DNA from: an uncultured Gammaproteobacteria bacterium
GTDB lineage: Bacteria > Patescibacteriota > Microgenomatia > UBA12405 > JAHJSD01
Length of the DNA: 64,000 nt
Direction: 5' to 3'
Assembly: GCA_964428655.1 (NCBI GenBank)
Contig: CAYRYE010000002.1
Coordinates: 103,472 to 167,471, forward strand
Part shown: piece by piece, positions 16,760 through 60,228 of the stretch
How the letters are laid out: each line of letters opens with the position of its first letter
Numbering within the stretch: the first letter of the stretch is position 1
Position numbers and translations under genes: made by a program
Notes under the pieces: generated by a model
Seen by the model: the letters and a program-made list of their open reading frames with translations, nothing else
What the model was told of the DNA's origin: nothing
Database searches by the model: none

Positions 16760-16980
16760 TTCTGCTCCTTTGCCAATTCAAATCTATAAAAAGCTTTACC
16801 ATTGCGGGTTATTTTTTCCAAAAACATATCTTTGGGCCTAACCCAAATCCGACCATCGTCTAAATGAATATAAACCACCATATCTTCTTCTGTTTCGCTA
16901 TGCTTCGCTTCAAACAAAACTTTCATTTTATAACCTTTAAAATGATTGTAAAGACCACCAATAATTAACTTTCTTGACAT
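16756..16980 (-). CDS. DUF1653-like small protein
   Basis: 74 aa; YNHFKGYKMKV...MVVYIHLDDGRIWVRP resembles DUF1653 signature (Y.HYKGG.Y ... WVRP). Confidence 0.45.
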   Translation of the reverse strand: MSRKLIIGGLYNHFKGYKMKVLFEAKHSETEEDMVVYIHLDDGRIWVRPKDMFLEKITRNGKAFYRFELAKEQK

Positions 16981-19070
16981 TAAAACCTCCCTTCATTCTT
17001 ATAACGATCTTTTAATTCGGCGATTTTACCTTTATTCCACCGACTAGTGAGGCTGAAAAAGCCAGAAACGCGAGTAATATAGTCAACATTTTTACTCTTG
17101 CAATAGGGACATTTTTTCAATAACCCTCGAGCTGTTTTTCGGCAATCATCGCAAAGGGTAAATTCAGGAGAAAAAGCAACCAGCTGGTTTTGTGTTTGAT
17201 AAAAAGTCTTTTCAATAAAATTGGCAATTGACTGCGGCGGCGGCTTTTGCTCACCCAGCCAAATATGCGTCATAGCACCAGCATCAATCAAGGGGTGGAA
17301 TAAGCCTTCTTTAGCCACCCGCTCAATAGGATCTATATTAGCGGAAACATTCATCTGAGTTGAATTAGTATAATAGACTGCCCCTGTTTTAAGATTGCCT
17401 TTAACCACTTGCTTTGCCTGCTCCGGGAACCATTCCAAATCCAGTTTAGCCAAACGATAAGAAGTCCCTTCTGCCGGAGTCTGTTCAGTGCAAATCCGAA
17501 TTCCTAATTCCTTACTCTGCTTCTGGGTACAAAGCCTCATAAAGGAAATTACTTTTAGGCCAAATTTTATAGCCTCATCTGATTGATGAAGCTCCTGTCC
17601 CAAATGATACTGAATCATCTCGTTTAAACCATAAATAGTAGTCAGCTCAACTGAACGGTCAAAACGATAATAAGGATAAGGATCATTTTCCTGCCGTGTG
17701 CAAAGGACCGCCAAAGGCCCAGCCGCTCCCAAGTCAAGAATCCTTTTAATAAAACGCCGTTTTTGAAGATGCGCTTGGGCAATTAAATCCAGCCGCTTTT
17801 TTAACAAAGAAAAAAGTTTCTTTTCATTATGTCCTGCTTTGTAAGCGATCCGCGGCAAATTAACCGTCAGCCAGCTGGTAGAGGAATGTCTCATTAATTC
17901 CGGCTTTTTGGTTTCAAGCAGATCCTGCTTGTCCAACTTAAAGGATAAACGACAGCACTGAGAAATCCGCACACTGCTTCCCCGATCAAAAAAGAACTCG
18001 GTATTCCCCTTTTCAATAGCTACCTGGGCGGCTAATTCCAAAAATTCTTTATGCCCCGGAGTCTGCCAAAATTTTTCCGTCATATGAAAATTCGGCTTAG
18101 GCCAAAAAAAGGGTCTCCCGACTCCGTCTCCGCCAAGATAAACTTTCATCAAGGCAGTCAAAAATCGCTGAGCGTCCTTTTGATAATATTTATAAGTTTT
18201 GCCTGTATATTTACCTCCTGGGCCAATGGCCGGAGTGTTAGCATAATGATCTGGTATCTCCCAATAAAGATTAATGTCGGAAAAAACCGCCTGGCCGCCC
18301 TTGGCAACATTTTGCATATTAAATTCGTAAACCATTAATTGAGCCAAATCATAAAGTTCTTTATCAGACATCCCAGTCAAAAAGGGAGCTAGAAAGATGT
18401 TGACTGCCTCCCAACCAATTGCTCCGGAAAAATTAACCTGCAGCATACAGGAAAATTTTATCAAATGCAGAATTAAAACATGAGCGTGCTTAGCAGGCTT
18501 GGCCATTGCCAACGAAGCAGCTACATTCAAACCGTATTTTTTAACATATTCAAGATTATTACCACAGCAATAAGGCCGATCAGGAAAAGTCAACTTGTGC
18601 AAATGAATATCCCCGCGTAAATGAGCATCGGCCACTCGAGGCGAATAGATCTCAGTCAAAGCATAATCTTTTTTCATTGAACCGGCCAAAGTCATATTGG
18701 TTGTTTCCGGAGTGTGGGGATTATTAGAAGAAACCTGCTCGTTATGAGCTAAGATAACATTGCCCACATCATAAATCGGCAATCCCAAGCGCCGATATTT
18801 ACGGTATTCTCTCTGCAAGCCCCGGTTAAGCAATTCCGCTCCCACTAAAGCCCGAACCAGGGCGCCGGTAATACGCTTGATCTTTAATCGCCGAACTTTT
18901 CGTTCTACTTTTTCGGCAACTTCTTTTAATAAACCATCAGTTAAACCGGTTTCTTGCTTCAAAGATTTAATAATATAACAGTTATCCCAAGAGCCAATTT
19001 CCTCACTGGTAGTTCTCACTTGCATAGTTAAATCCCTAATCTCGTCGCGTTTTGTTGGTACCGGGCTCAT
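16980..19070 (-). CDS. nrdD: anaerobic ribonucleoside-triphosphate reductase (class III), paralog with N-terminal ATP-cone and RVSGFF glycyl-radical motif
   Basis: 696 aa; HLRGDIHLHKL...YCCGNNLEY NrdD N-terminal motif, CCRLSF, C-terminal Zn ribbon CDDC...CPYC and ITRVSGFFS glycyl-radical loop; about 100-aa ATP-cone-like N-terminus. Confidence 0.8.
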   Translation of the reverse strand: MSPVPTKRDEIRDLTMQVRTTSEEIGSWDNCYIIKSLKQETGLTDGLLKEVAEKVERKVRRLKIKRITGALVRALVGAELLNRGLQREYRKYRRLGLPIYDVGNVILAHNEQVSSNNPHTPETTNMTLAGSMKKDYALTEIYSPRVADAHLRGDIHLHKLTFPDRPYCCGNNLEYVKKYGLNVAASLAMAKPAKHAHVLILHLIKFSCMLQVNFSGAIGWEAVNIFLAPFLTGMSDKELYDLAQLMVYEFNMQNVAKGGQAVFSDINLYWEIPDHYANTPAIGPGGKYTGKTYKYYQKDAQRFLTALMKVYLGGDGVGRPFFWPKPNFHMTEKFWQTPGHKEFLELAAQVAIEKGNTEFFFDRGSSVRISQCCRLSFKLDKQDLLETKKPELMRHSSTSWLTVNLPRIAYKAGHNEKKLFSLLKKRLDLIAQAHLQKRRFIKRILDLGAAGPLAVLCTRQENDPYPYYRFDRSVELTTIYGLNEMIQYHLGQELHQSDEAIKFGLKVISFMRLCTQKQSKELGIRICTEQTPAEGTSYRLAKLDLEWFPEQAKQVVKGNLKTGAVYYTNSTQMNVSANIDPIERVAKEGLFHPLIDAGAMTHIWLGEQKPPPQSIANFIEKTFYQTQNQLVAFSPEFTLCDDCRKTARGLLKKCPYCKSKNVDYITRVSGFFSLTSRWNKGKIAELKDRYKNEGRF

Positions 19071-20956
19071 AGTTTCTTATTTCTAAATCGCTCTTTTAAC
19101 TCGTGCCTCTTCCCTTTATTCCATTGCTTAACAAAAGAATAATAACCGACTACTCTTGTTATCCAATCCACATCTTCACTACCGCAAAAACTGCATTTCT
19201 TTTTAATACCCCGCATTACCCGCCCGCAATCATCACAAATAGTGAACTCCGGACTAAAAGCTACTTGGACATTCTGCGTCTGATTAAAAATTTTCCAAAT
19301 CAACCTGGCCATCGACTGCGGCGACGGTCGAGACTCCCCTAGCCAAATATGACTCAAAGCGCCACCCTGCATCATTGGGTGAAACTTTCCTTCAACCTCA
19401 ATTCTTTCCAAAACATCTATTTCGGCGTCAACATCTAATTGGGAAGAATTTGTGTAGTAAACTTCATCTGTTTTTGGATTGCCGTGAACAATTTTTTTAC
19501 TCTCTTCCGGATAGCAAATCAAGTCTAGCTTGGCAAAACGATAGTTAGTTGATTCCGCCGGGTCTTGGTCTAAAAGTATTTTTAACCCCGACTTCTTACT
19601 TTCCTCCTCACACTTTTTTTTCATAAAAGCGGTTATCCGCAAGCCAAATTTAAGCGCTTCATCAGACTGGTGCAGAGCCCTACCCAAATGGAATCTGACC
19701 GCATCAGAAAGACCGCCAACTGCATTCATGAAAGTCATTTTATCAATTCGTAAATAAGGTTCTTTGTCACTTTTGGCAGTTATGGTCAACATACCCAAAG
19801 GCCCGGCAAGCCCCATTGCTAACAACTTTTTCAAAAATTTATACTTCTGCAGGTGAGCTTTAGTCAACAGTTGCAATTTCTCCTCTAAAATCTTGAAAAA
19901 ATTCTCATCATTATGTTTCGCTTGATAAGCTATCCGAGGTAGATTGATGGTCAAATAAGGACAGGCGGCATAACGCATCCGCCATGGCTTTTTGGCATCT
20001 TTTAAATCTTCTTTGGATAACTCGAACTGAACCCGACAGCACTCAGAAATTTTAGCAGTTGCTCCCCGGTCAAAAATAAAATAAGGATTGCCCATTTTCG
20101 AAGCAACATCACAGACATGTTCCAAAAACTCTTTATGACCCGGTGTCTTCCAAAATTTAGTAGTAATATGCACATTTGGTTTTGGCCAGAAAAAGGGCCT
20201 GCCCTTAGCATCGCCCCTTTTATAAATATTCAGTATTTGCCAAACCAAAGCCTGCGATTCTTTAACATAGTCTTTATAAAGCTTGCCCGTATATTCACCT
20301 CGGGGGCCAATGGCCGGCACATTGGCAAAATGATCAGGAATTTCCCAATAAAGATTAATGTCGGAAAAAACCGGCTGGGCCCCATGGGGACCAACTGTTT
20401 GATTAAATTGATAAATTATCCTCTGGGCTACCTGTCTTATTTCCCTATCCCCCATCCCTCCTAAATACGGGGCCATATACATATTTAGGGCATCCCAGCC
20501 AATGGCGCCGCCGAAATGGGCCCGCAGAGCCATGGTCATTCTCATCATATGATCAACCAGAGCATCAATGTGGCCGGCTGGTTTAACAGCGGCAAAAGAA
20601 GCATATTTAGTTAAGCCAAATTTTTTGACATATTCCAAGCTCTGGCCAGAACAATAGGGTCTGTCAATAAAGCCCAGCTTGTGAAGCTTTATATCTCCTT
20701 TTCTATGAGCTTCAGCAACATCTTTGGAAAAAACGTTCCGCAAAGCATATTCTTTTTTTAAAAACTCGGAAAGAGTAAAAGAGGTGCCTTCCGGACTATT
20801 TATTTTGTTGGCATCATCTTTGCTGCCTTCCGAGGCAATAACACCGCCTATTTCACCCAAAGTGATAATAATTTTTTTTCCCAGGCCATTGACTCTCCCT
20901 ATTTCGGTGAAATCAGTGGGGTCAAAACTATCGGTTTCTTTTTTTCTAATTGGCAT
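19067..20956 (-). CDS. nrdD: anaerobic ribonucleoside-triphosphate reductase (class III), paralog lacking ATP-cone, RVVGYY glycyl-radical motif
   Basis: 629 aa; HRKGDIKLHKL...YCSGQSLEY, ECCRVQF, Zn ribbon CDDC...CSFC, ITRVVGYYS; paralogous to downstream copy (shared FSDINLYWEIPDH, GRPFFWPKPN). Confidence 0.8.
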   Translation of the reverse strand: MPIRKKETDSFDPTDFTEIGRVNGLGKKIIITLGEIGGVIASEGSKDDANKINSPEGTSFTLSEFLKKEYALRNVFSKDVAEAHRKGDIKLHKLGFIDRPYCSGQSLEYVKKFGLTKYASFAAVKPAGHIDALVDHMMRMTMALRAHFGGAIGWDALNMYMAPYLGGMGDREIRQVAQRIIYQFNQTVGPHGAQPVFSDINLYWEIPDHFANVPAIGPRGEYTGKLYKDYVKESQALVWQILNIYKRGDAKGRPFFWPKPNVHITTKFWKTPGHKEFLEHVCDVASKMGNPYFIFDRGATAKISECCRVQFELSKEDLKDAKKPWRMRYAACPYLTINLPRIAYQAKHNDENFFKILEEKLQLLTKAHLQKYKFLKKLLAMGLAGPLGMLTITAKSDKEPYLRIDKMTFMNAVGGLSDAVRFHLGRALHQSDEALKFGLRITAFMKKKCEEESKKSGLKILLDQDPAESTNYRFAKLDLICYPEESKKIVHGNPKTDEVYYTNSSQLDVDAEIDVLERIEVEGKFHPMMQGGALSHIWLGESRPSPQSMARLIWKIFNQTQNVQVAFSPEFTICDDCGRVMRGIKKKCSFCGSEDVDWITRVVGYYSFVKQWNKGKRHELKERFRNKKL

Positions 20957-48612: not shown

Positions 48613-49734
48613 CTATTTGTGAGCCCAGTGTGAGATATCAATCAAAACTACGTGCTTGTCGTCATAATCACCGGAGTTGGAAACAATTTTCACAGCCCCA
48701 TCCTTTTTAAGCACTGCTTCATCTTCAATCTCGGGAGAGCAGTAATCTGTGCCATCTGAACCAACCAAAAGAACAACTTGACGCCCAGCCCCATACACCT
48801 CGCTAGACGCAAATTCTGCCTTTTTCATTACTCCTATTCTCAGGTTTTTCTCAAATGCGCGGCGCGGCTGACCAAATGCAGTATCGATTGCTCCTTCTAA
48901 GTTGTCAACAGTTTCCGCTGCCCCTTGCGGCGTATTCTCTGCTTCTATAAATCTTCCAAGCAATTCCTGCCTTGCTTCACTAACTGCCTGGCTGATTTCT
49001 GATGGCGTCATTTCTTCAGTAGAACCAATATATCTCCTCAGTATATTTTGAGGCACTTCTAAAATTCTTTTTTCTTCAGGCTGAGCGCTGGAAATTAATT
49101 CAAGTCTTTCATCTCCCGCATAAGCCCAGGCAATATGATCTTCGGTAATCAAAACAACTGCGCCGGCAGTAGAATAATCAAATTTATCTTTTCTTCTCGC
49201 TCCTTTATAAGCCTGGTGAATCCGTCCATTCATATAAAGTGCCAATCGGCCGCAAAATTCCTGAGGAGAATCACTGAGACTATTTTCAAAGGCTTCTTCT
49301 CCACGAGCCACAGCGCTTACAGCACTCTGCGCGGCTTCTATGCCTTGAGTGGCTGCCATATGCCCATTTCCGCCCTCACTAACACCGTCAAGAGAAACAA
49401 TTAAAAGAGACTCACCAAACTTTGGGTGTTTAAAAACAGCCGCCAACATTCTGTCGTCACCGCCAACACCTTTTGCCTCCTTATCACTTCTAGCTTGAAT
49501 AGCGGCGCTGACAAACAATCTGGATTCTGCCAAAGAAACATTTCTTTGCATTTGGTGCATCGGCGGCTTTGCGCCCTCCACCACTTCCCTGCCCAAAGCC
49601 AAATAATTATTTCCAAGATGATCTTTTTCTTTTTTTTGAACTGAAATAATATCTTCTCCCATATTTTGCAATCTTTTCCGTAATCTGTTATACACTACAT
49701 ATAACATAAATGAGTCCTGAACATCAAAAAGCAA
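48613..49734 (-). CDS. PP2C-like (SpoIIE/PPM family) phosphatase-like protein, degenerate
   Basis: VSLDGVSEGGNGHMAATQG resembles VADGMGGH..G PPM motif; AYAGDERL resembles GDSR motif. Confidence 0.4.
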   Translation of the reverse strand: MLFDVQDSFMLYVVYNRLRKRLQNMGEDIISVQKKEKDHLGNNYLALGREVVEGAKPPMHQMQRNVSLAESRLFVSAAIQARSDKEAKGVGGDDRMLAAVFKHPKFGESLLIVSLDGVSEGGNGHMAATQGIEAAQSAVSAVARGEEAFENSLSDSPQEFCGRLALYMNGRIHQAYKGARRKDKFDYSTAGAVVLITEDHIAWAYAGDERLELISSAQPEEKRILEVPQNILRRYIGSTEEMTPSEISQAVSEARQELLGRFIEAENTPQGAAETVDNLEGAIDTAFGQPRRAFEKNLRIGVMKKAEFASSEVYGAGRQVVLLVGSDGTDYCSPEIEDEAVLKKDGAVKIVSNSGDYDDKHVVLIDISHWAHK

Positions 49735-49756
49735 AAAACATAATTATTATTACTTA

Positions 49757-49825
49757 GTCGCTTTAAACCCGAAACTTCGGGGTAAAAAGCGGCATGACCA
49801 AAATCCTTCGCGAGAAGGGTTTTTT
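49757..49825 (+). promoter_or_regulatory. ileS 5' leader: long hairpin (49757-49793) and intrinsic-terminator-like hairpin ccttcgcgagaagg + T-run (49805-49825) ending about 19 nt before the ATG
   Basis: Stems and T-run read directly; TACAAT at 49832-49837 only 6 nt before ATG. Confidence 0.45.
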
Positions 49826-49843: not shown

Positions 49844-52792
49844 ATGGTTAGGAAAAATAAGCCACCAAAAAAATATTTCAAAGAAGTGCCGGCTAAGTTT
49901 GATTTTATTGGCAATGAGAAAACGCTTTTGGATTGGTGGTATAAAAGCGGCGTGGTTAAAAAGTATCTAGATAAAAACAAGGACTCTAAAAAGAGATTCT
50001 CTTTTATAGATGGGCCTATCACCGCCAACAACCCCATGGGGGTTCATCACGCCTGGGGCCGAACCTTGAAAGATTTATATCAGCGCTACAAAAATATGCA
50101 AGGCTTCAAACAGCGCTTCCAAAATGGCTTTGACTGCCAGGGATTATGGATCGAAGTTGAAGTAGAAAAGGAAAGAAAATTTAAAACTAAAAAAGATATT
50201 GAAAAATACGGTATTGCTGAATTCGTTGAAGACTGCAAAAACAGGGTTCGAAAATATTCGAAAGTGCAAATTGAACAATCCAAAAAGCTAGGCTACTTTA
50301 TGGATTGGGGCAACGATTACTACACAATGAGCGATGAAAATAACTACGGCATTTGGAGTTTTCTGAAAAAAGTCTGGCAAGACGACAACCTTTATAAGGG
50401 CCGCGACAGCGTGCCCTGGTGCCCCCGCTGCGGCACAGCTATTTCCCAACACGAAATTTTAACTGAAGAATATAAAAAAATAACACACGATTCAATTTAT
50501 TTTGAACTCCCCATTGTTAGTCGTGACAACGAACGCTTTCTTGTCTGGACAACAACACCATGGACTTTGCCAGGAAACGTTGCTTTAGCTGTTCATCCAG
50601 AACTGGAATATTGGCTAATTAAAGGTTTTACTGGTATAAATTTTTGGATAGCCGGCCCACTAGCTAAAACGGTTTTTAATACTGATGTTAAGGCCATAAA
50701 AAAAATCAAGGGTAATAAATTGGTAGGGCTTAAATACACTGCGCCCTTTGATGAATGGCCTGCTGTTCAGGCCGCCAAAAAAGAAAATCCCAAAACTTTC
50801 CATACCGTAGTCGCCTCTAAAGAAATGGTGGCAGAAGATGAAGGAACCGGAATCGTTCATATTGCCACCGGCTGCGGCACTGAAGATTTCCGCCTTGGAC
50901 AAGAGAAAAAGCTGCCGGTTTTACCAACGATTGATGAAGCGGCTTGCTACCTAAATGGTTTTGGAGACTTAAGTCATAAGAATGCAAAAAACAATCCTCG
51001 ACTGGCTTTAGACCATCCATTATTAAAAGTTAAAGTCGGCAATCCTGCTGAAGACTATATTTTTGAAATTAAACCTTACACCCATCGCTATCCTGTCTGC
51101 TGGCGTTGCCAAACTGAACTCGTCTGGCGGGTAGTTGATGAGTGGTATATTGCTATGGACAATCAGCATCAACCCAAGGCGAAAAACTATCGTCAACGAC
51201 TAATGCAGATTATTAAAAAAGTTCATTGGATCCCCTCTTTTGGCTATGCCCGCGAATTAGACTGGCTTCGCAATATGGAAGATTGGCTCATTTCTAAAAA
51301 ACGCTATTGGGGCTTAGCTTTACCCATTTGGGAATGCTCGTGCGGTCATTTTGAAGTGATTGGCTCAAAAGAAGAATTAGAAAAAAAGGCAGTTGAAGGC
51401 TGGAAAGAATTCATTGGCCACACTCCACACCGACCCTGGATAGACAAAGTAAAAATCAAATGCCCCCAATGCGGTCAATTGATTAGCCGAATTTTAGATG
51501 TGGGCAATCCTTGGCTAGATGCAGGCATTGTTTCTTTTTCTACCCTGAAATATTTTAAAAAGCGTCAATACTGGCAGAAGTGGTTCCCTGCTGACTTAGT
51601 GCTTGAGTGTTTTCCGGGCCAGTTTAAAAACTGGTTCTATTCTCTTTTGGCCATGAGTGCTGTTTTGGAAAAGACAGCCCCTTTTAAAACTCTTTTAGGC
51701 CACGCTCTGGTCCGTGACGAAAAGGGCGAGGAAATGCACAAAAGCAAAGGTAATGCTATTTGGTTTGACGAGGCGGCAGAGAAAATGGGGGTTGACGCCA
51801 TGCGGTGGCTGTATGCGCGGCAGGAACCGAAATTTAATCTCAATTTCGGCTACGGCATTGCTGATGAAGTCAGAAGGCAATATATTTTCCTGCTTTGGAA
51901 CACTTATCGGTTCTTTGTTACCTATGCCAATTTAAATGGTTGGAAACCAAAGAAAAAATGGCCAAATGGTCAAATGGCCAAATGGTCGAAATTGGATAAA
52001 TGGATCTTGTCTCGTCTAGAATCAACTAAAAAAGTCGCTAAAGAAAAACTTGACGACTACCACCATCACGAAGCAATTAAAGCTATTGAAAAATTTCTGA
52101 ATGATCTTTCTTTATGGTACGTTAGAAGATCCAGAGAAAGAGTTAATCCTAACAACAGAGATAAAAAAGACAGAAGCGCTTGCCTCCCCACCTTATATTA
52201 TGTTCTGAAGAACCTCTCTCTAATTCTGGCTCCATTTGTTCCCTATTTAACAGAGACTATTTGGCAGGGATTAACTAATTCTGACAACTCTGTCCACCTT
52301 CAAAATTGGCCAGAAACAAAAAAAGAATTAATTAACAAAAAATTAGAAAAGCAAATGGCATTGGTGCGGGAAATTGTCACTCTCGGTCATAGTCAAAGAA
52401 AGGCAAAGCAAATTAAGGTTAGACAACCATTAAAAAAGTTCAAAGTTCAAAGTTCAAAGTTCAAAGTTAGTGAAGTCTTAATTCAACTAATTAAAGACGA
52501 ATTAAACGCAAAAGAAGTAGAAATTAAAACCGGAAAGGGCGAATTAAAAGTTGAGTTTGATACAAAAATCACCCTGGAACTAAAAGCAGAGGGTGAGGTA
52601 CGAGAATTGATCCGCCAAGTTCAAATCCTGCGCCGCGAAGCGGGATTATCTTTAGACGACAAAATCACTATCCACGCCCCCTCCTGGCCAAAAAAATGGG
52701 AAAAGGAAATACTAACACGAACTGGAGCTAAAGAAATTAAAAAAGGAAAAAAGCTCAAAATTATCACTAATTCTGACTTTAAGAACACCTAA
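49844..52792 (+). CDS. ileS: isoleucyl-tRNA synthetase (type 2-like), with atypical HIGH/KMSKS regions and two internal tandem repeats
   Basis: 982 aa; GPITANNPMGVHHAW aligns to GPPYANGSIHIGH; editing CP1 TTTPWTLPGNVALAV; EMHKSKGN at KMSKS position; WCPRCGT zinc motif. Confidence 0.85.
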   Translation: MVRKNKPPKKYFKEVPAKFDFIGNEKTLLDWWYKSGVVKKYLDKNKDSKKRFSFIDGPITANNPMGVHHAWGRTLKDLYQRYKNMQGFKQRFQNGFDCQGLWIEVEVEKERKFKTKKDIEKYGIAEFVEDCKNRVRKYSKVQIEQSKKLGYFMDWGNDYYTMSDENNYGIWSFLKKVWQDDNLYKGRDSVPWCPRCGTAISQHEILTEEYKKITHDSIYFELPIVSRDNERFLVWTTTPWTLPGNVALAVHPELEYWLIKGFTGINFWIAGPLAKTVFNTDVKAIKKIKGNKLVGLKYTAPFDEWPAVQAAKKENPKTFHTVVASKEMVAEDEGTGIVHIATGCGTEDFRLGQEKKLPVLPTIDEAACYLNGFGDLSHKNAKNNPRLALDHPLLKVKVGNPAEDYIFEIKPYTHRYPVCWRCQTELVWRVVDEWYIAMDNQHQPKAKNYRQRLMQIIKKVHWIPSFGYARELDWLRNMEDWLISKKRYWGLALPIWECSCGHFEVIGSKEELEKKAVEGWKEFIGHTPHRPWIDKVKIKCPQCGQLISRILDVGNPWLDAGIVSFSTLKYFKKRQYWQKWFPADLVLECFPGQFKNWFYSLLAMSAVLEKTAPFKTLLGHALVRDEKGEEMHKSKGNAIWFDEAAEKMGVDAMRWLYARQEPKFNLNFGYGIADEVRRQYIFLLWNTYRFFVTYANLNGWKPKKKWPNGQMAKWSKLDKWILSRLESTKKVAKEKLDDYHHHEAIKAIEKFLNDLSLWYVRRSRERVNPNNRDKKDRSACLPTLYYVLKNLSLILAPFVPYLTETIWQGLTNSDNSVHLQNWPETKKELINKKLEKQMALVREIVTLGHSQRKAKQIKVRQPLKKFKVQSSKFKVSEVLIQLIKDELNAKEVEIKTGKGELKVEFDTKITLELKAEGEVRELIRQVQILRREAGLSLDDKITIHAPSWPKKWEKEILTRTGAKEIKKGKKLKIITNSDFKNT
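51956..51993. repeat. tandem repeat (ccaaatggt/caaatggc 8-nt units) inside ileS
   Basis: aaatggccaaatggtcaaatggccaaatggtcgaaatt read directly. Confidence 0.8.
52438..52468. repeat. tandem repeat gttcaaa x4 inside ileS
   Basis: gttcaaagttcaaagttcaaagttcaaagtt read directly. Confidence 0.85.
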
Positions 52793-57109: not shown

Positions 57110-58891
57110 TTAAACATTTAGAGATCGCTTATCAATATTATTTTTTATTAATCCCAAAAACTCAGCTAATTTCTGTTCTTTCTGTTTTTTCTGGCCCCTT
57201 TTACGAACATTGACTGATTTGTTTTTTTCCTCTTTATCGCCAAGGACTAAAATATAGGGAACTTTTTGAAGTTCTGCTTGACGAATACGGTAAGAAAGGG
57301 TCTGGCTGGAATCGTCAAGCTCAACACGAATATCTTCTTTTTTAAGAGTTTCGGCCACTTTTTGACCATAATCAACATGTTTTTCAGTAATGGGCAAAAC
57401 TACCACTTGCACTGGTACCAACCAAACCGGAAAAGCGCCAGCAAAATGTTCAGTTAAAAAGGAAATAAATCTGATGTGAGATCCCAATGGAGCCCGGTGA
57501 ATACAAACTGGTATTTTCTTTTTGCCATCTTCGCCAACATATTCTAAACCAAGGGCTTTGGGAATAAAAAAATCAAGTTGGTTAGTTGAGGCAGAGAAAA
57601 CTTTTCCAGTCACCGTCCTGATATTAAAGTCTATTTTAGGTCCATAGAAAGCGGCTCCGCCTTCCTCAATTTCATAAGCAATTCCTGATTTTTTAATATA
57701 TTCCAGAGTGATTTTTTCGGCTTTATCCCACATTTTGTCGTCGCCAAGATACTTGTCTTTATTTTCCTTGTCTCTAATGGCAAAAGAAAGAAAATAATCT
57801 TTTTCGATTAAACCCAAAACATCGTAATAATACTTATGCAGTTCCATCACTTTTTGGAATTCTTCCTCAGCCTGTTCTTCAGTGCAAAAAATATGGGCGT
57901 CATTTTGATGAATTGGCCCTCGGGCCCGCATTATGCCATGAAGTTCACCAGCCTTTTCATAACGATAAACTGCCCCATATTCAGCAATCCTCAAGGGTAA
58001 ATCGCGATAACTTCTTGGCTGACTTTTAAAAACTAAATGATGAGCAGCACAATTCATTGGTTTTAAGTAGTAGTTTCCTTTTTCTTTATCTCTCAAGGCT
58101 GGATACATTGACTCCAAATAATGGGGAACATGACCAGTTTTCTTAAATAACTCCTCGGTGGCAATATGGGGAGTAAAAACTCGAACATAACCCCACTTCC
58201 TCTCAGTTTTTTTGGCCCACTTTTCCAGTTCTTCAGCAATAATCGCCCCGTTGGGTAAAAGAGTCACCAAACCTTGACCAAGTTCATCAGATAGCTGATA
58301 AAGTTTAAGACTTTTGTTTAGCTCGCGATGGTCACGTTTTTTGGCTTCTTCAATTTGTTTTAAATAATCATCTAGCTCTTTTTGGGTTGGAAAGGCAGTA
58401 CCGTAAATGCGGGTGAGCATTTTGTTTTTTTCATCGCCTCGCCAATAAGCGCCGGCAACAGATAAGAGTTTGAAAGCGCCAATTTTACCTGTACTCTTTA
58501 TATGAGGACCAGCACAGAGATCAACAAATCCTTCGCCTGTGTAATAAAGCATTGCCTTTTCGCCTTTTTCCTCAATTTCATCCAACCATTCCTGCTTGTA
58601 AGGATTGCCTTTAAAAAGTTTTTTTGCCTCTTTAACGGCAATTTCTTTCTTAACTAAGGAAAGATTTTTCTTAATAATCTTTCTCATCTCTTTTTCAATC
58701 TTGGAAAAGTCACTCTCTGAAATTTTCAAACCACCCCTAATATTAAAGTCAAAATAAAAACCTTCATCTATTGCCGGCCCCATAGCTTTAATTATTTTGC
58801 CCGGCCAAAGATTGTCCATTGCCTGCATCAACACATGCTCGGCTGTATGCCTCATTACTTTCAGGGTGTTATTCGGATTTTGTTTCTTCAT
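57110..58891 (-). CDS. thrS: threonyl-tRNA synthetase lacking N-terminal TGS domain
   Basis: 593 aa; MRHTAEHVLMQAM (HxxxH of second additional domain), class II core motifs, C-terminal anticodon-binding domain. Confidence 0.9.
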   Translation of the reverse strand: MKKQNPNNTLKVMRHTAEHVLMQAMDNLWPGKIIKAMGPAIDEGFYFDFNIRGGLKISESDFSKIEKEMRKIIKKNLSLVKKEIAVKEAKKLFKGNPYKQEWLDEIEEKGEKAMLYYTGEGFVDLCAGPHIKSTGKIGAFKLLSVAGAYWRGDEKNKMLTRIYGTAFPTQKELDDYLKQIEEAKKRDHRELNKSLKLYQLSDELGQGLVTLLPNGAIIAEELEKWAKKTERKWGYVRVFTPHIATEELFKKTGHVPHYLESMYPALRDKEKGNYYLKPMNCAAHHLVFKSQPRSYRDLPLRIAEYGAVYRYEKAGELHGIMRARGPIHQNDAHIFCTEEQAEEEFQKVMELHKYYYDVLGLIEKDYFLSFAIRDKENKDKYLGDDKMWDKAEKITLEYIKKSGIAYEIEEGGAAFYGPKIDFNIRTVTGKVFSASTNQLDFFIPKALGLEYVGEDGKKKIPVCIHRAPLGSHIRFISFLTEHFAGAFPVWLVPVQVVVLPITEKHVDYGQKVAETLKKEDIRVELDDSSQTLSYRIRQAELQKVPYILVLGDKEEKNKSVNVRKRGQKKQKEQKLAEFLGLIKNNIDKRSLNV

Positions 58892-59310
58892 TTTCTGCTA
58901 TTAATATACAATTTAAGCAAATAAAAAACCAGCCTTCGCGGCTGGTTTGGTTCTTTTCCAAATTACTCCGCTACAAACCAGCCTCTTATAAGGCAGTAGC
59001 TGTAGTGGTAGCAATCAAAGAAATTTTCATTTTATTAGAGATAGTATATCACAACTTATCTTTTCCGAAATCAGCGGCTCCCCACTGCCTCTCTTACCAA
59101 TCCTGGCCGACAACCATGCGGACAATCTCCACTATGAACACAACAAAGAGCAGGTCTTTCTGTTCTTCCCCATTTTCCTCGACAGCCAACCCGAGTGCCT
59201 CCCCCGGTAGTTGTTGGAATAGCCCGACCACAACGAGTAACTTGTTTTACTCGTTCTGTTGTAACTTGCGACATATTTTCACTTATAACAAATTTATAAA
59301 AAATCGTCAA
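58892..59310 (-). promoter_or_regulatory. putative about 380-nt GC-rich structured 5' leader of thrS with its own promoter (TTGACG-17-TATAAG at 59282-59310); overlaps ORF 59071-59310
   Basis: Promoter hexamers and spacing read on minus strand; leader ends in terminator/antiterminator; the 67-79 aa Cys-rich ORF inside may be spurious or a leader peptide. Confidence 0.4.
58921..58984 (-). terminator. intrinsic terminator hairpin (ccagcc-gcgaa-ggctgg + U6) with mutually exclusive upstream pairing (ggctggtttg / caaaccagcc), 30 nt upstream of thrS ATG
   Basis: Minus-strand sequence ggctggtttgtagcggagtaatttggaaaagaaccaaaccagccgcgaaggctggtttttt read directly; segment caaaccagcc can pair with either neighbour. 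Confidence 0.55.
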
Positions 59311-59379
59311 TTAATAAAAAATGTTTTCTAAATCAAGAACAAGTTTGATTTTGTTAATCGCGGCGTCAACGCAAAAAAA

Positions 59380-59688
59380 TCTATAGTGTATAATATGTAC
59401 ATATATTGAAAATGTCAAAAAAACCTATTGCTCTAATTGCTCCTACGGGTAGACACTGTGAGGGATGTCGAACTCCAGCTGGAAGCATTTGCCCTGTAAA
59501 CCCCAGAACATCTTTAAAACCCACAAAAGAACAGCCTCGCGGAGAGGCATTATCTCCAAACTTATGTGTGAACACTAGTAGAGGTCTCTCTAAAAAGCAA
59601 CTCCGTGTAACTAGACGTTGGATAGGTCGAACAGCAAGGACTTGTTAGATACCGGGCTAGGTGTTAAAATCAAATCAAATATAATTAA
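59380..59688 (+). ncRNA. candidate GC-rich structured RNA (or 80-aa Cys-rich ORF 59406-59648) downstream of a TATAAT promoter and co-oriented with tRNA-Cys/tRNA-Lys
   Basis: TATAAT at 59388-59393; GC-rich in an AT-rich genome; several local hairpins (ggagaggcattatctcc, ccagctgg); no match to RNase P, tmRNA or SRP consensus that I could confirm by eye. Confidence 0.25.
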
Positions 59689-59761
59689 GGTCCGGTGGTG
59701 AAGTGGCTAACACGGCGGTCTGCAAAACCGCTATTCATGGGTTCGAGTCCCATCCGGACCT
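59689..59761 (+). tRNA. tRNA-Cys (anticodon GCA), no CCA
   Basis: GGTCCGG-TG-GTG-AAGTGGCTAA-CAC-G-GCGGT-CTGCAAA-ACCGC-TATTC-ATGGG-TTCGAGT-CCCAT-CCGGACC-T. Confidence 0.75.
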
Positions 59762-59768
59762 CTTTTTT

Positions 59769-59841
59769 GCGCCCGTAGCTCAGCTGGCAGAGCACCGGCC
59801 TTTTAAGCCGTGGGTCGGGGGTTCGAATCCCTCCGGGCGCA
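59769..59841 (+). tRNA. tRNA-Lys (anticodon TTT), no CCA
   Basis: GCGCCCG-TA-GCTC-AGCTGGCA-GAGC-A-CCGGC-CTTTTAA-GCCGT-GGGTC-GGGGG-TTCGAAT-CCCTC-CGGGCGC-A. Confidence 0.75.
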
Positions 59842-60228
59842 CAGTTTAACTATCATCTTCTGGTCACGTCTCGAGGGATCTGAAGGGGCACTAAGAATCG
59901 CAAAAGCCTGCTCTTCTGTTATATCCCCATGAATACTATATCTCCCGTCCACCTCCAACCAGGCACCCTCTGGGCCTACCAAAACCGCAAGACTTAACGC
60001 AATTGATTGAGGGCAAACTACTCTAGTTCTAGCCACACCCCCGGCATGTTTAAGTTCGTGCTTCACTACTTTTTTAACAAAAGGTTTTCCTCCTCGAACT
60101 CCATTCTTTTCTAAGAAAAACAGCGCTTGACGCCCAACTCTCCTAATTGCCCCAAAAGTATTAGCCCTTCCCTCGACTGGACCAGAAGCAAAATAACCAG
60201 CACAATACAACTCCCTTTCTTTAGCCAT
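59803..60228 (-). CDS. small HExxH-motif protein (putative metallopeptidase-like), 3' end antisense-overlaps tRNA-Lys
   Basis: 141 aa; VVKHELKHAGG; last about 13 codons are simply the reverse complement of the tRNA, so the true C-terminus is uncertain. Confidence 0.35.
   Translation of the reverse strand: MAKERELYCAGYFASGPVEGRANTFGAIRRVGRQALFFLEKNGVRGGKPFVKKVVKHELKHAGGVARTRVVCPQSIALSLAVLVGPEGAWLEVDGRYSIHGDITEEQAFAILSAPSDPSRRDQKMIVKLCARRDSNPRPTA

Follow-up and report, generated by a model that had tools for sequence, protein, structure and literature searches.

A probable leader-peptide attenuator ahead of thrS in a Patescibacteria-like genome

INTRODUCTION

What controls thrS, the gene for threonyl-tRNA synthetase (ThrRS), in a 64,000-nucleotide (nt) stretch of contig CAYRYE010000002.1 (the whole of which we call the window)? 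An earlier note, made from the sequence of this DNA, had pointed to a terminator/antiterminator switch on the minus strand ahead of thrS, placed it at the end of a GC-rich leader, and suggested that this leader could be a divergent or novel structured RNA of the kind that regulates aminoacyl-tRNA synthetase (aaRS) genes. The switch is supported by our analysis, since both the terminator and the alternative pairing of its 5′ arm are present; the RNA sensor is not supported. In its place, we find a 14-codon, threonine-rich open reading frame (ORF) that the note had overlooked, downstream of the GC-rich stretch and ahead of the terminator. The element is quite probably a classical ribosome-mediated, leader-peptide transcription attenuator that senses charged tRNA-Thr, and it is thus a new example of a known mechanism and not a new kind of RNA. 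This answer draws on the sequence elements themselves, their predicted alternative folds, the conservation of the layout in relatives, and the specificity for cognate codons, each of which is presented below together with the explanations that compete with it.

RESULTS

A threonine-rich leader ORF and a terminator with an alternative partner

The product of thrS carries the Pfam domains tRNA_SAD, tRNA-synt_2b, and HGTP_anticodon. Public gene calls place its start at a methionine 12 codons downstream of 58891, and the 12-residue N-terminal extension that is thereby left off is present in homologues too, which makes the ATG at 58891 a reasonable start (Table 1). This ATG lies ~31 nt beyond the end of the T-run of an intrinsic terminator (58948-58926 plus U-run), and the 30 nt immediately preceding it are AU-rich and without structure. 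The 5′ arm of the terminator, region 3, has two potential partners. As an antiterminator, GGCTGGTTTG (58983-58974) and CAAACCAGCC (58949-58940) form 10 perfect Watson-Crick pairs, as the earlier note had claimed, and this helix and the 9-bp, GC-rich terminator stem (regions 3 and 4) are mutually exclusive. When the upstream 96 nt were shuffled 200,000 times, a complement as long as the pairing of regions 2 and 3 arose on only 6 occasions (a chance of 3e-5).

The overlooked leader ORF reads ATG AAA ATT TCT TTG ATT GCT ACC ACT ACA GCT ACT GCC TTA TAA. Threonine is specified by 4 of its 14 codons and by 4 of 6 within one consecutive run, a clear enrichment in the codons cognate to the synthetase. 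The last of these codons ends 11 nt before region 2, and the stop codon ends 2 nt ahead of it. As in an attenuator, an intrinsic terminator stands between the leader ORF and thrS, both here and in two related loci, L166 and L168, described below. The part of sensor, which the note had given to a structured RNA, would therefore fall to an ordinary Thr-rich leader peptide ORF (59030-58986). Gene callers miss these 14 codons yet call the adjacent orphan ORF of 67 codons. No repeats of the leader were found elsewhere in the window.

Table 1. Features of the thrS and ileS loci, with their positions in the window
Feature	Position	Strand	Evidence or remarks
thrS, threonine--tRNA ligase, 593 aa (gene proposed to be regulated)	57110..58891	-	Pfam domains and homologues
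TATATT, -10-like hexamer	58903..58908	-	11 nt upstream of the thrS ATG, beyond the terminator
Intrinsic terminator: AAACCAGCC/GGCTGGTTT stem, GCGAA loop (58948-58926), U-run to 58920	58920..58948	-	Terminator scan, folding
Region 3, CAAACCAGCC	58940..58949	-	Pairs alternatively with region 2 (10 bp) or region 4 (9 bp)
3′ arm of 1:2 stem, region 2 being its first part	58955..58985	-	Minimum-free-energy pairs
Region 2, antiterminator 5′ arm, GGCTGGTTTG	58974..58983	-	First part of the 3′ arm of the 1:2 stem
Leader peptide ORF, 14 codons, MKISLIATTTATAL and stop	58986..59030	-	Sequence read
Region 1, 5′ arm of long 1:2 stem, holding the Thr codons	58990..59023	-	Minimum-free-energy pairs
Control codons ACC ACT ACA gct ACT, 4 Thr in 5 positions	58995..59009	-	Sequence read
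P2, extended -10 TGaTATACT	59043..59051	-	12 nt upstream of the leader ATG; candidate attenuator promoter
Orphan 67-codon ORF, Cys/Gly/Arg-rich	59071..59274	-	Coding periodicity
P1, TTGACG (59310-59305), 17 nt, TATAAG (59287-59282), preceded by TGT (extended -10)	59282..59310	-	Sequence read; function inferred
ileS mini-ORF, MSPEHQKAKNIIIIT and stop	49710..49757	+	Terminator-centred scan
Hairpin after the ileS mini-ORF	49758..49793	+	
Terminator ahead of ileS	49800..49823	+	
ileS, 982-aa ORF	49844..52792	+	TIGR00392, 690.9 bits versus a cut-off of 621.4

Predicted folds and proposed course of attenuation

Folded freely, the segment 59045-58915 has a minimum free energy (MFE) of -42.2 kcal/mol (z = -5.4 against 200 shuffles). 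In this structure, the segment with the Thr codons (59023-58990) pairs with 58985-58955 (region 2 included), upstream of the terminator; hairpin loops are predicted to be AUAA and GCGAA. In these models, the 1:2, 2:3, and 3:4 pairings have the arrangement of a classical attenuator. We represented the translating ribosome by masking the A-site codon plus 12-15 nt and refolding what remained. With the transcript cut just before region 4 and the ribosome at the last Thr codon, the 2:3 helix is the MFE structure in the window, L166, and L168, and in the latter two the same holds for a ribosome at any Thr position. With the ribosome at the stop codon, the 2:3 pairing is lost in all three lineages, leaving region 3 free for the terminator; in the window without a ribosome, the 1:2 stem and the terminator form. 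The geometry is thus that of an attenuator, although early stall positions in the window are only marginal.

These folds suggest the following course of events. Transcription would begin upstream of the 14-codon ORF, probably at P2 and possibly also at P1. When Thr-tRNA is plentiful, the ribosome would reach the UAA and cover region 2, which lies 2 nt downstream; regions 3 and 4 would then form the terminator, and RNA polymerase would halt ~30 nt before thrS. With no ribosome loaded, region 1, containing the Thr codons, would pair with region 2, and the terminator would form again. When Thr-tRNA is scarce (e.g., when ThrRS activity is limiting), the ribosome would stall on ACC-ACT-ACA-gct-ACT, opening the 1:2 stem and exposing region 2, which would pair with region 3 before region 4 is transcribed. 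The terminator would thereby be blocked, allowing read-through into thrS. Translation of the leader ORF, the site of transcription initiation, and the response to Thr-tRNA are the parts of this scheme that we infer. At the level of sequence, the element has every feature that defines a classical attenuator, and the mechanism is directly testable.

The switch is conserved in two related lineages

In a neighbor-joining tree, the ThrRS of the window forms a clade with two proteins, P0003 (74% identity) and P0004 (72%), whose loci (L166/L167 and L168) were obtained via exact-protein look-ups. Both loci have the Thr run, the terminator, and the alternative pairing. The leader peptide of L168, MGRLTQIIQGVTTTTTTAF, contains Thr at 7 of 19 codons, six of them consecutive (TTTTTT); 2 nt separate its stop codon from GGCUGGUUUGU, the partner of AUAAACCAGCC in an 11-bp pairing, and its terminator is AAACCAGCC-AAAAA-GGCUGGUUU followed by U7. 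In L166/L167, the leader peptide ends in SGETTTTIAEP, with four consecutive Thr, and its stop codon overlaps GCUGGCUUAA (a gap of -1 nt), which pairs with UUAAGCCAGC over 10 bp ahead of the terminator AAGCCAGC-CAAGA-GCUGGUUU with U7. Across the three lineages (window, L168, and L166), the distance from stop codon to region 2 is thus +2, +2, and -1 nt. Between the end of the final Thr codon and region 2 there are 11, 11, and 14 nt, and the 2:3 pairing is canonical throughout (10, 11, and 10 bp). Comparison of GCUGGCUUAA:UUAAGCCAGC of L166 with GGCUGGUUUG:CAAACCAGCC of the window reveals two pairs in which both partners have been replaced (U:A in the window by C:G, and G:C by A:U). The Thr run is the sole feature common to the three leader peptides. 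The comparison with relatives, which the earlier note had named as a check, has two outcomes: the layout of the switch and, with covariation, the 2:3 helix are kept, and the GC-rich stretch is not. Other samples also yielded contigs of this organism, and over the region these do not differ from the window.

It could be supposed that the mini-ORF and hairpin constitute an independent small gene, encoding a hydrophobic micropeptide or a small RNA, that adjoins thrS by chance. The unit has its own extended -10 and terminator, and the window peptide MKISLIATTTATAL is indeed hydrophobic; its counterparts in L166 and L168, however, are not, and share nothing with it but the Thr run. Moreover, three lineages have the unit linked to thrS, as do, independently, members of other phyla, and an isoleucine version occurs ahead of ileS in the same genome (see below). 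As such, we regard a chance neighbor as very improbable.

The conserved element has a narrow distribution. Of nine further ThrRS relatives, six have tRNA-Val(GAC), DUF5660, or DUF5665 upstream of thrS, one has an unrelated 68-aa ORF (L169), and one is on a contig that begins within thrS. The tRNA-Val(GAC) gene directly precedes thrS in L084 (492-570), L085 (2469-2543), L086 (1860-1935), and L170 (1159-1233), whereas the neighbor is DUF5660 in L171 and DUF5665 in L173. Since the next lineages out lack the device, the element is young and restricted to a small clade. Among the matches to ThrRS in a search of genome contigs, none exceeded 47% identity, and a search of metagenome contigs with a clade-specific ThrRS segment returned mostly distant ThrRS and one close relative (L086), without the leader. 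For ThrRS and IleRS (isoleucyl-tRNA synthetase), the nearest matches that carry an organism name belong to Woesebacteria, Microgenomates, and Patescibacteria (56-62% identity).

As an observation on the sister lineages themselves, tRNA-Val(GAC) lies 0-50 nt from the thrS start with no terminator, and a DUF5660 gene usually precedes the tRNA. There, thrS may share a transcript with tRNA-Val, from which it would be released by processing.

Threonine specificity and independent thrS leaders

We scanned 159 thrS upstream regions for mini-ORFs with at least three identical residues in a row, from one four-codon family, near the stop, followed by a terminator. Such units were found for Thr in four lineages and for Ala in one, and for Gly, Pro, Val, Ser, Leu, and Arg in none. 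The fourth Thr lineage, a Phycisphaerales metagenome-assembled genome (MAG JB052; L034, 2630-2745), has MSQKTTTTTTTTSPD and a GC-rich terminator, with thrS ~60 nt on. Upstream of thrS in a Polyangiaceae MAG (L016, 2844-2990) is the Thr-run mini-ORF MNWLSLLTTEGTTTTR, and a further locus (L117, 1649-1745) has MKLAATTTIF with a terminator; the intrinsic terminators are clear in L034 and L117. Leader-peptide control of thrS may therefore recur across phyla and be under-annotated.

An isoleucine unit precedes ileS

All terminators of the window were scanned for mini-ORF units, and the unit ahead of ileS is the second case (Table 1). In it, a conserved mini-ORF with Ile codons is followed by a hairpin and then by a terminator, directly after which there is a putative leaderless-type promoter: beyond the terminator come TGTTACAAT, 6 nt, and the ileS ATG. 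Because the neighboring gene is divergent, this terminator cannot serve an upstream gene and must be premature. The arrangement is kept in L174 (IleRS 69% identical), with MKSQREKTSQIIIDF, and in L175 (65%), with MFFSLSIIG. The unit supports the sensing of cognate codons; at the same time, ileS very likely has its own unregulated promoter, and the unit might use an undescribed mechanism, such as one in which read-through into that downstream promoter, or interference with it, would depend on the ribosome. The proS gene of the window is without a leader.

Taken together with the Thr-run leaders of the Phycisphaerales and Polyangiaceae MAGs, the Ile run at ileS suggests that leader-peptide control of aaRS genes has arisen repeatedly and is under-annotated. 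That cognate leader-peptide units have taken over, across several aaRS genes of this uncultivated, small-genome, CPR-like lineage (CPR, candidate phyla radiation; thrS and ileS so far), the role of the Firmicutes-type T-box is a broader proposition, which we consider doubtful.

The GC-rich stretch is most likely a separate small-protein gene

The leader is GC-rich only in part. GC content is 0.49-0.52 over 59050-59250, versus 0.40 for the window, so that the enrichment described in the earlier note does exist; it is, however, moderate and confined to the 67-codon ORF. GC contents at codon positions 1, 2, and 3 of this ORF are 0.61, 0.69, and 0.25, with the third position AT-rich, and its codon score of 0.13 (genes, 0.30 +/- 0.11; off-frame, -0.64) falls toward the lower end for real genes and well above off-frame sequence. 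It has no Pfam match and no homologue but itself among 5.8 billion proteins. Because of the coding periodicity, we take the stretch to be most likely a separate, orphan small-protein gene outside the switch, neither spurious nor a leader peptide, as had been suggested for it. We rejected the role of leader peptide for it and also that of structured RNA, the latter on the coding periodicity and on a fold z-score that is equal on both strands.

These results bear on the possibility of an RNA-only switch, in which uncharged tRNA-Thr (as in a divergent T-box), ThrRS, or a small ligand would bind the long GC-rich leader. A terminator and an antiterminator are present, thrS is T-box controlled or autoregulated in other bacteria (PMC1262725, PMC2965389), and the fold of the upstream 240 nt has z = -3.25 relative to shuffles, all of which would suit such a device. 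That z-score is nevertheless the same on the opposite strand, the stretch has a coding signature, and it is unconserved in the two relatives that retain the switch: when the upstream GC-rich parts of the three loci (in L168, a 15-codon ORF plus spacer) were aligned, the scores did not exceed those of shuffles, and a tblastn search with the 149-aa upstream ORF of L166 (itself without a Pfam match) found nothing in the window or L168. The 200 nt in question are thus most likely not part of a structured leader. Scanned with Rfam at gathering scores, the whole window yielded only tRNAs, and a permissive scan of 58700-59900 (E ≤ 10) found neither T-box (RF00230) nor Thr_leader (RF00506), nor did any other family match except for a single weak hit to Phe_leader (RF01859; 26 bits versus a gathering score of 55, E = 0.085), spanning 58920-59036. 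The earlier statement that a T-box is missing therefore stands. The AUAA and GCGAA loops are unlike the tRNA-Thr anticodon loop, and a complete leader-peptide sensor is present instead. We hold an RNA-only switch to be very unlikely.

Promoters and the points that weigh against attenuation

The TTGACG-17-TATAAG site reported earlier (P1) is present at 59310-59282; a consensus promoter scan omits it since its second hexamer ends in G. The transcript length of ~380 nt given with it had been deduced from the sequence. Between P1 and the downstream ATG of the 67-codon ORF there are 7 nt, a spacing of the leaderless type, and we read this ORF as expressed from P1 in a leaderless-type message. With no terminator in between, P1 may also feed the attenuator. 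Shine-Dalgarno-like motifs occur in 6 of 46 long ORFs of the window, whereas 17 of 45 long ORFs have a -10-like hexamer whose end is 5-13 nt from the start codon (versus 4.8% at other ATGs), 7 of the 17 with an extended TG. Messages of the leaderless or near-leaderless kind would accordingly be frequent in this organism. Given this rarity and the presence of a P2-type hexamer, the lack of a Shine-Dalgarno sequence at the leader ORF is no argument against its translation.

In the window, L166 (23-472), and L168 (68-115) alike, a putative promoter upstream of the attenuator has its -10 hexamer 6-7 nt ahead of an ATG, and the three ORFs headed in this way (67 codons in the window, 149 in L166, and 15 in L168) are mutually nonhomologous.

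Several points weigh against attenuation of thrS. The main caveat is TATATT, which may be an independent, unregulated promoter of thrS and whose spacing to the thrS ATG is common among genes of this genome; if thrS does have its own promoter, the attenuator would modulate extra read-through and would not be the sole control. In addition, the isolated window hairpins are about equal (2:3, -14.4 kcal/mol, versus 3:4, -14.6 kcal/mol), and when the ribosome occupies either of the first two Thr codons, other small hairpins are slightly favored in the truncated transcript of the window (-16.8 versus -15.9). Due to this equal stability and to the competitors of early stalling, antitermination in the window would depend on kinetics, that is, on the order of synthesis, and on the site of the stall. 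In the trp attenuator, the textbook case, antitermination is likewise dependent on the order of synthesis. The element is found in three lineages only, with sister lineages lacking it; L166 and L168 have no promoter adjoining the leader ORF; and the leader ORF of L166 can start only at a GTG, which is located inside the upstream ORF. Finally, folding of the leaders of ileS in the window, L174, and L175 gave no antiterminator, so a cognate mini-ORF with a terminator does not always amount to the classical scheme.

Carried to its end, the caveat about TATATT becomes an explanation of its own: the hairpin would be the terminator of the upstream 67-codon gene, thrS would be transcribed from TATATT, and the mini-ORF and the complement would have no function. 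The typical spacing of TATATT 11 nt before the thrS ATG agrees with this, as do the lack of a terminator between the 67-codon ORF and the hairpin and the occurrence of -10-like hexamers after the terminators of thrS in L166 and of ileS in the window, L174, and L175. It leaves unexplained, however, why otherwise unrelated peptides in three lineages should share a Thr run, why the gap from stop codon to region 2 should be -1 to +2 nt in all three, why the 2:3 helix (chance, 3e-5) should have survived changes in both of its arms, and why the enrichment upstream of thrS should be specific for Thr. A downstream promoter and an attenuator can also coexist. We therefore consider it unlikely that the hairpin serves only the upstream gene, and we retain attenuation by a leader peptide as the preferred reading of the locus.

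Other features of the window

Upstream of the locus, ARAGORN found no tmRNA and only tRNA-Cys and tRNA-Lys, on the other strand. Another block of moderate GC enrichment (up to 0.50) occupies 59420-59600 on both strands, with no Pfam match for either of its ORFs and no Rfam match; beyond it on the minus strand is a near-consensus TTGACA-17-TATTAT (59418-59390), and within it is a terminator-like hairpin (59548-59534). A 141-codon ORF on the minus strand (59803-60228) runs antisense into tRNA-Lys (59769-59842, plus strand), and its tail, CARRDSNPRPTA, is typical of antisense-tRNA translation. Farther away, 16980-20956 on the minus strand contains two tandem, full-length paralogues of NrdD, the anaerobic ribonucleotide reductase (696 and 629 aa).

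DISCUSSION

Our literature search found no link between CPR bacteria and leader-peptide attenuation, and on the literature searched, the thrS element would be the first leader-peptide attenuator described in a CPR/Patescibacteria-like genome. Its operation would imply that transcription and translation are coupled there, despite initiation being largely free of Shine-Dalgarno sequences.

Membership in the T-box (RF00230), Thr_leader, and Phe_leader families was rejected on covariance-model scores below gathering. An E. coli-type thrS operator was rejected as well, by inspection only, in view of the AUAA and GCGAA loops and the AU-rich, unstructured 30 nt before the gene.

In E. coli, the binding of ThrRS blocks initiation of thrS translation. 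The operator concerned is a tRNA-Thr-like 5′ untranslated region (PMC2965389), and it resembles the window element in exerting feedback control of thrS via a 5′ leader; the window element differs in its intrinsic terminator and its leader ORF, and no mimic of an anticodon arm was seen in it. T-box riboswitches control aaRS genes of Firmicutes, including thrS (PMC1262725, PMC2965389). They share with the proposed attenuator both the outcome (a rise in synthetase at low tRNA charging) and the terminator/antiterminator output, but a T-box binds uncharged tRNA directly, whereas the proposed sensor here is a translating ribosome.

Closer parallels are found among leader-peptide systems. The enterobacterial thrL leader has a peptide with a Thr run and the same logic of 1:2, 2:3, and 3:4 hairpins. 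It controls the biosynthetic thrABC operon and carries Ile codons too. The window element, in contrast, would control a synthetase gene, has a control cluster of Thr only, and does not match RF00506 at E ≤ 10. Among aaRS genes, leader-peptide attenuators have been described for pheST in gammaproteobacteria and for trpS and leuS in Streptomyces (PMC1262725), as well as for hisS paralogues in Bacillus (PMC2965389). The E. coli pheM/pheST system (PMC1262725) corresponds in its short ORF with cognate codons, its alternative hairpins, its matching aaRS gene, and its sensing of charged tRNA in place of the free amino acid; it differs in amino acid and phylum and has no sequence similarity to the window element, which scores 26 bits against the 55 required of Phe_leader.

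Actinobacteria likewise have leader peptides before aaRS genes, thrS included, often on leaderless or near-leaderless transcripts (PMC1262725, PMC8079986). In Streptomyces lividans TK24, these comprise alaL-alaS and, weakly, thrL-thrS, in which thrL has two Thr codons and is without a clear intrinsic terminator (PMC8079986). Relative to that leader, the element ahead of thrS in the window has a cluster of Thr codons, a canonical terminator, and an antiterminator that is conserved in two related lineages.

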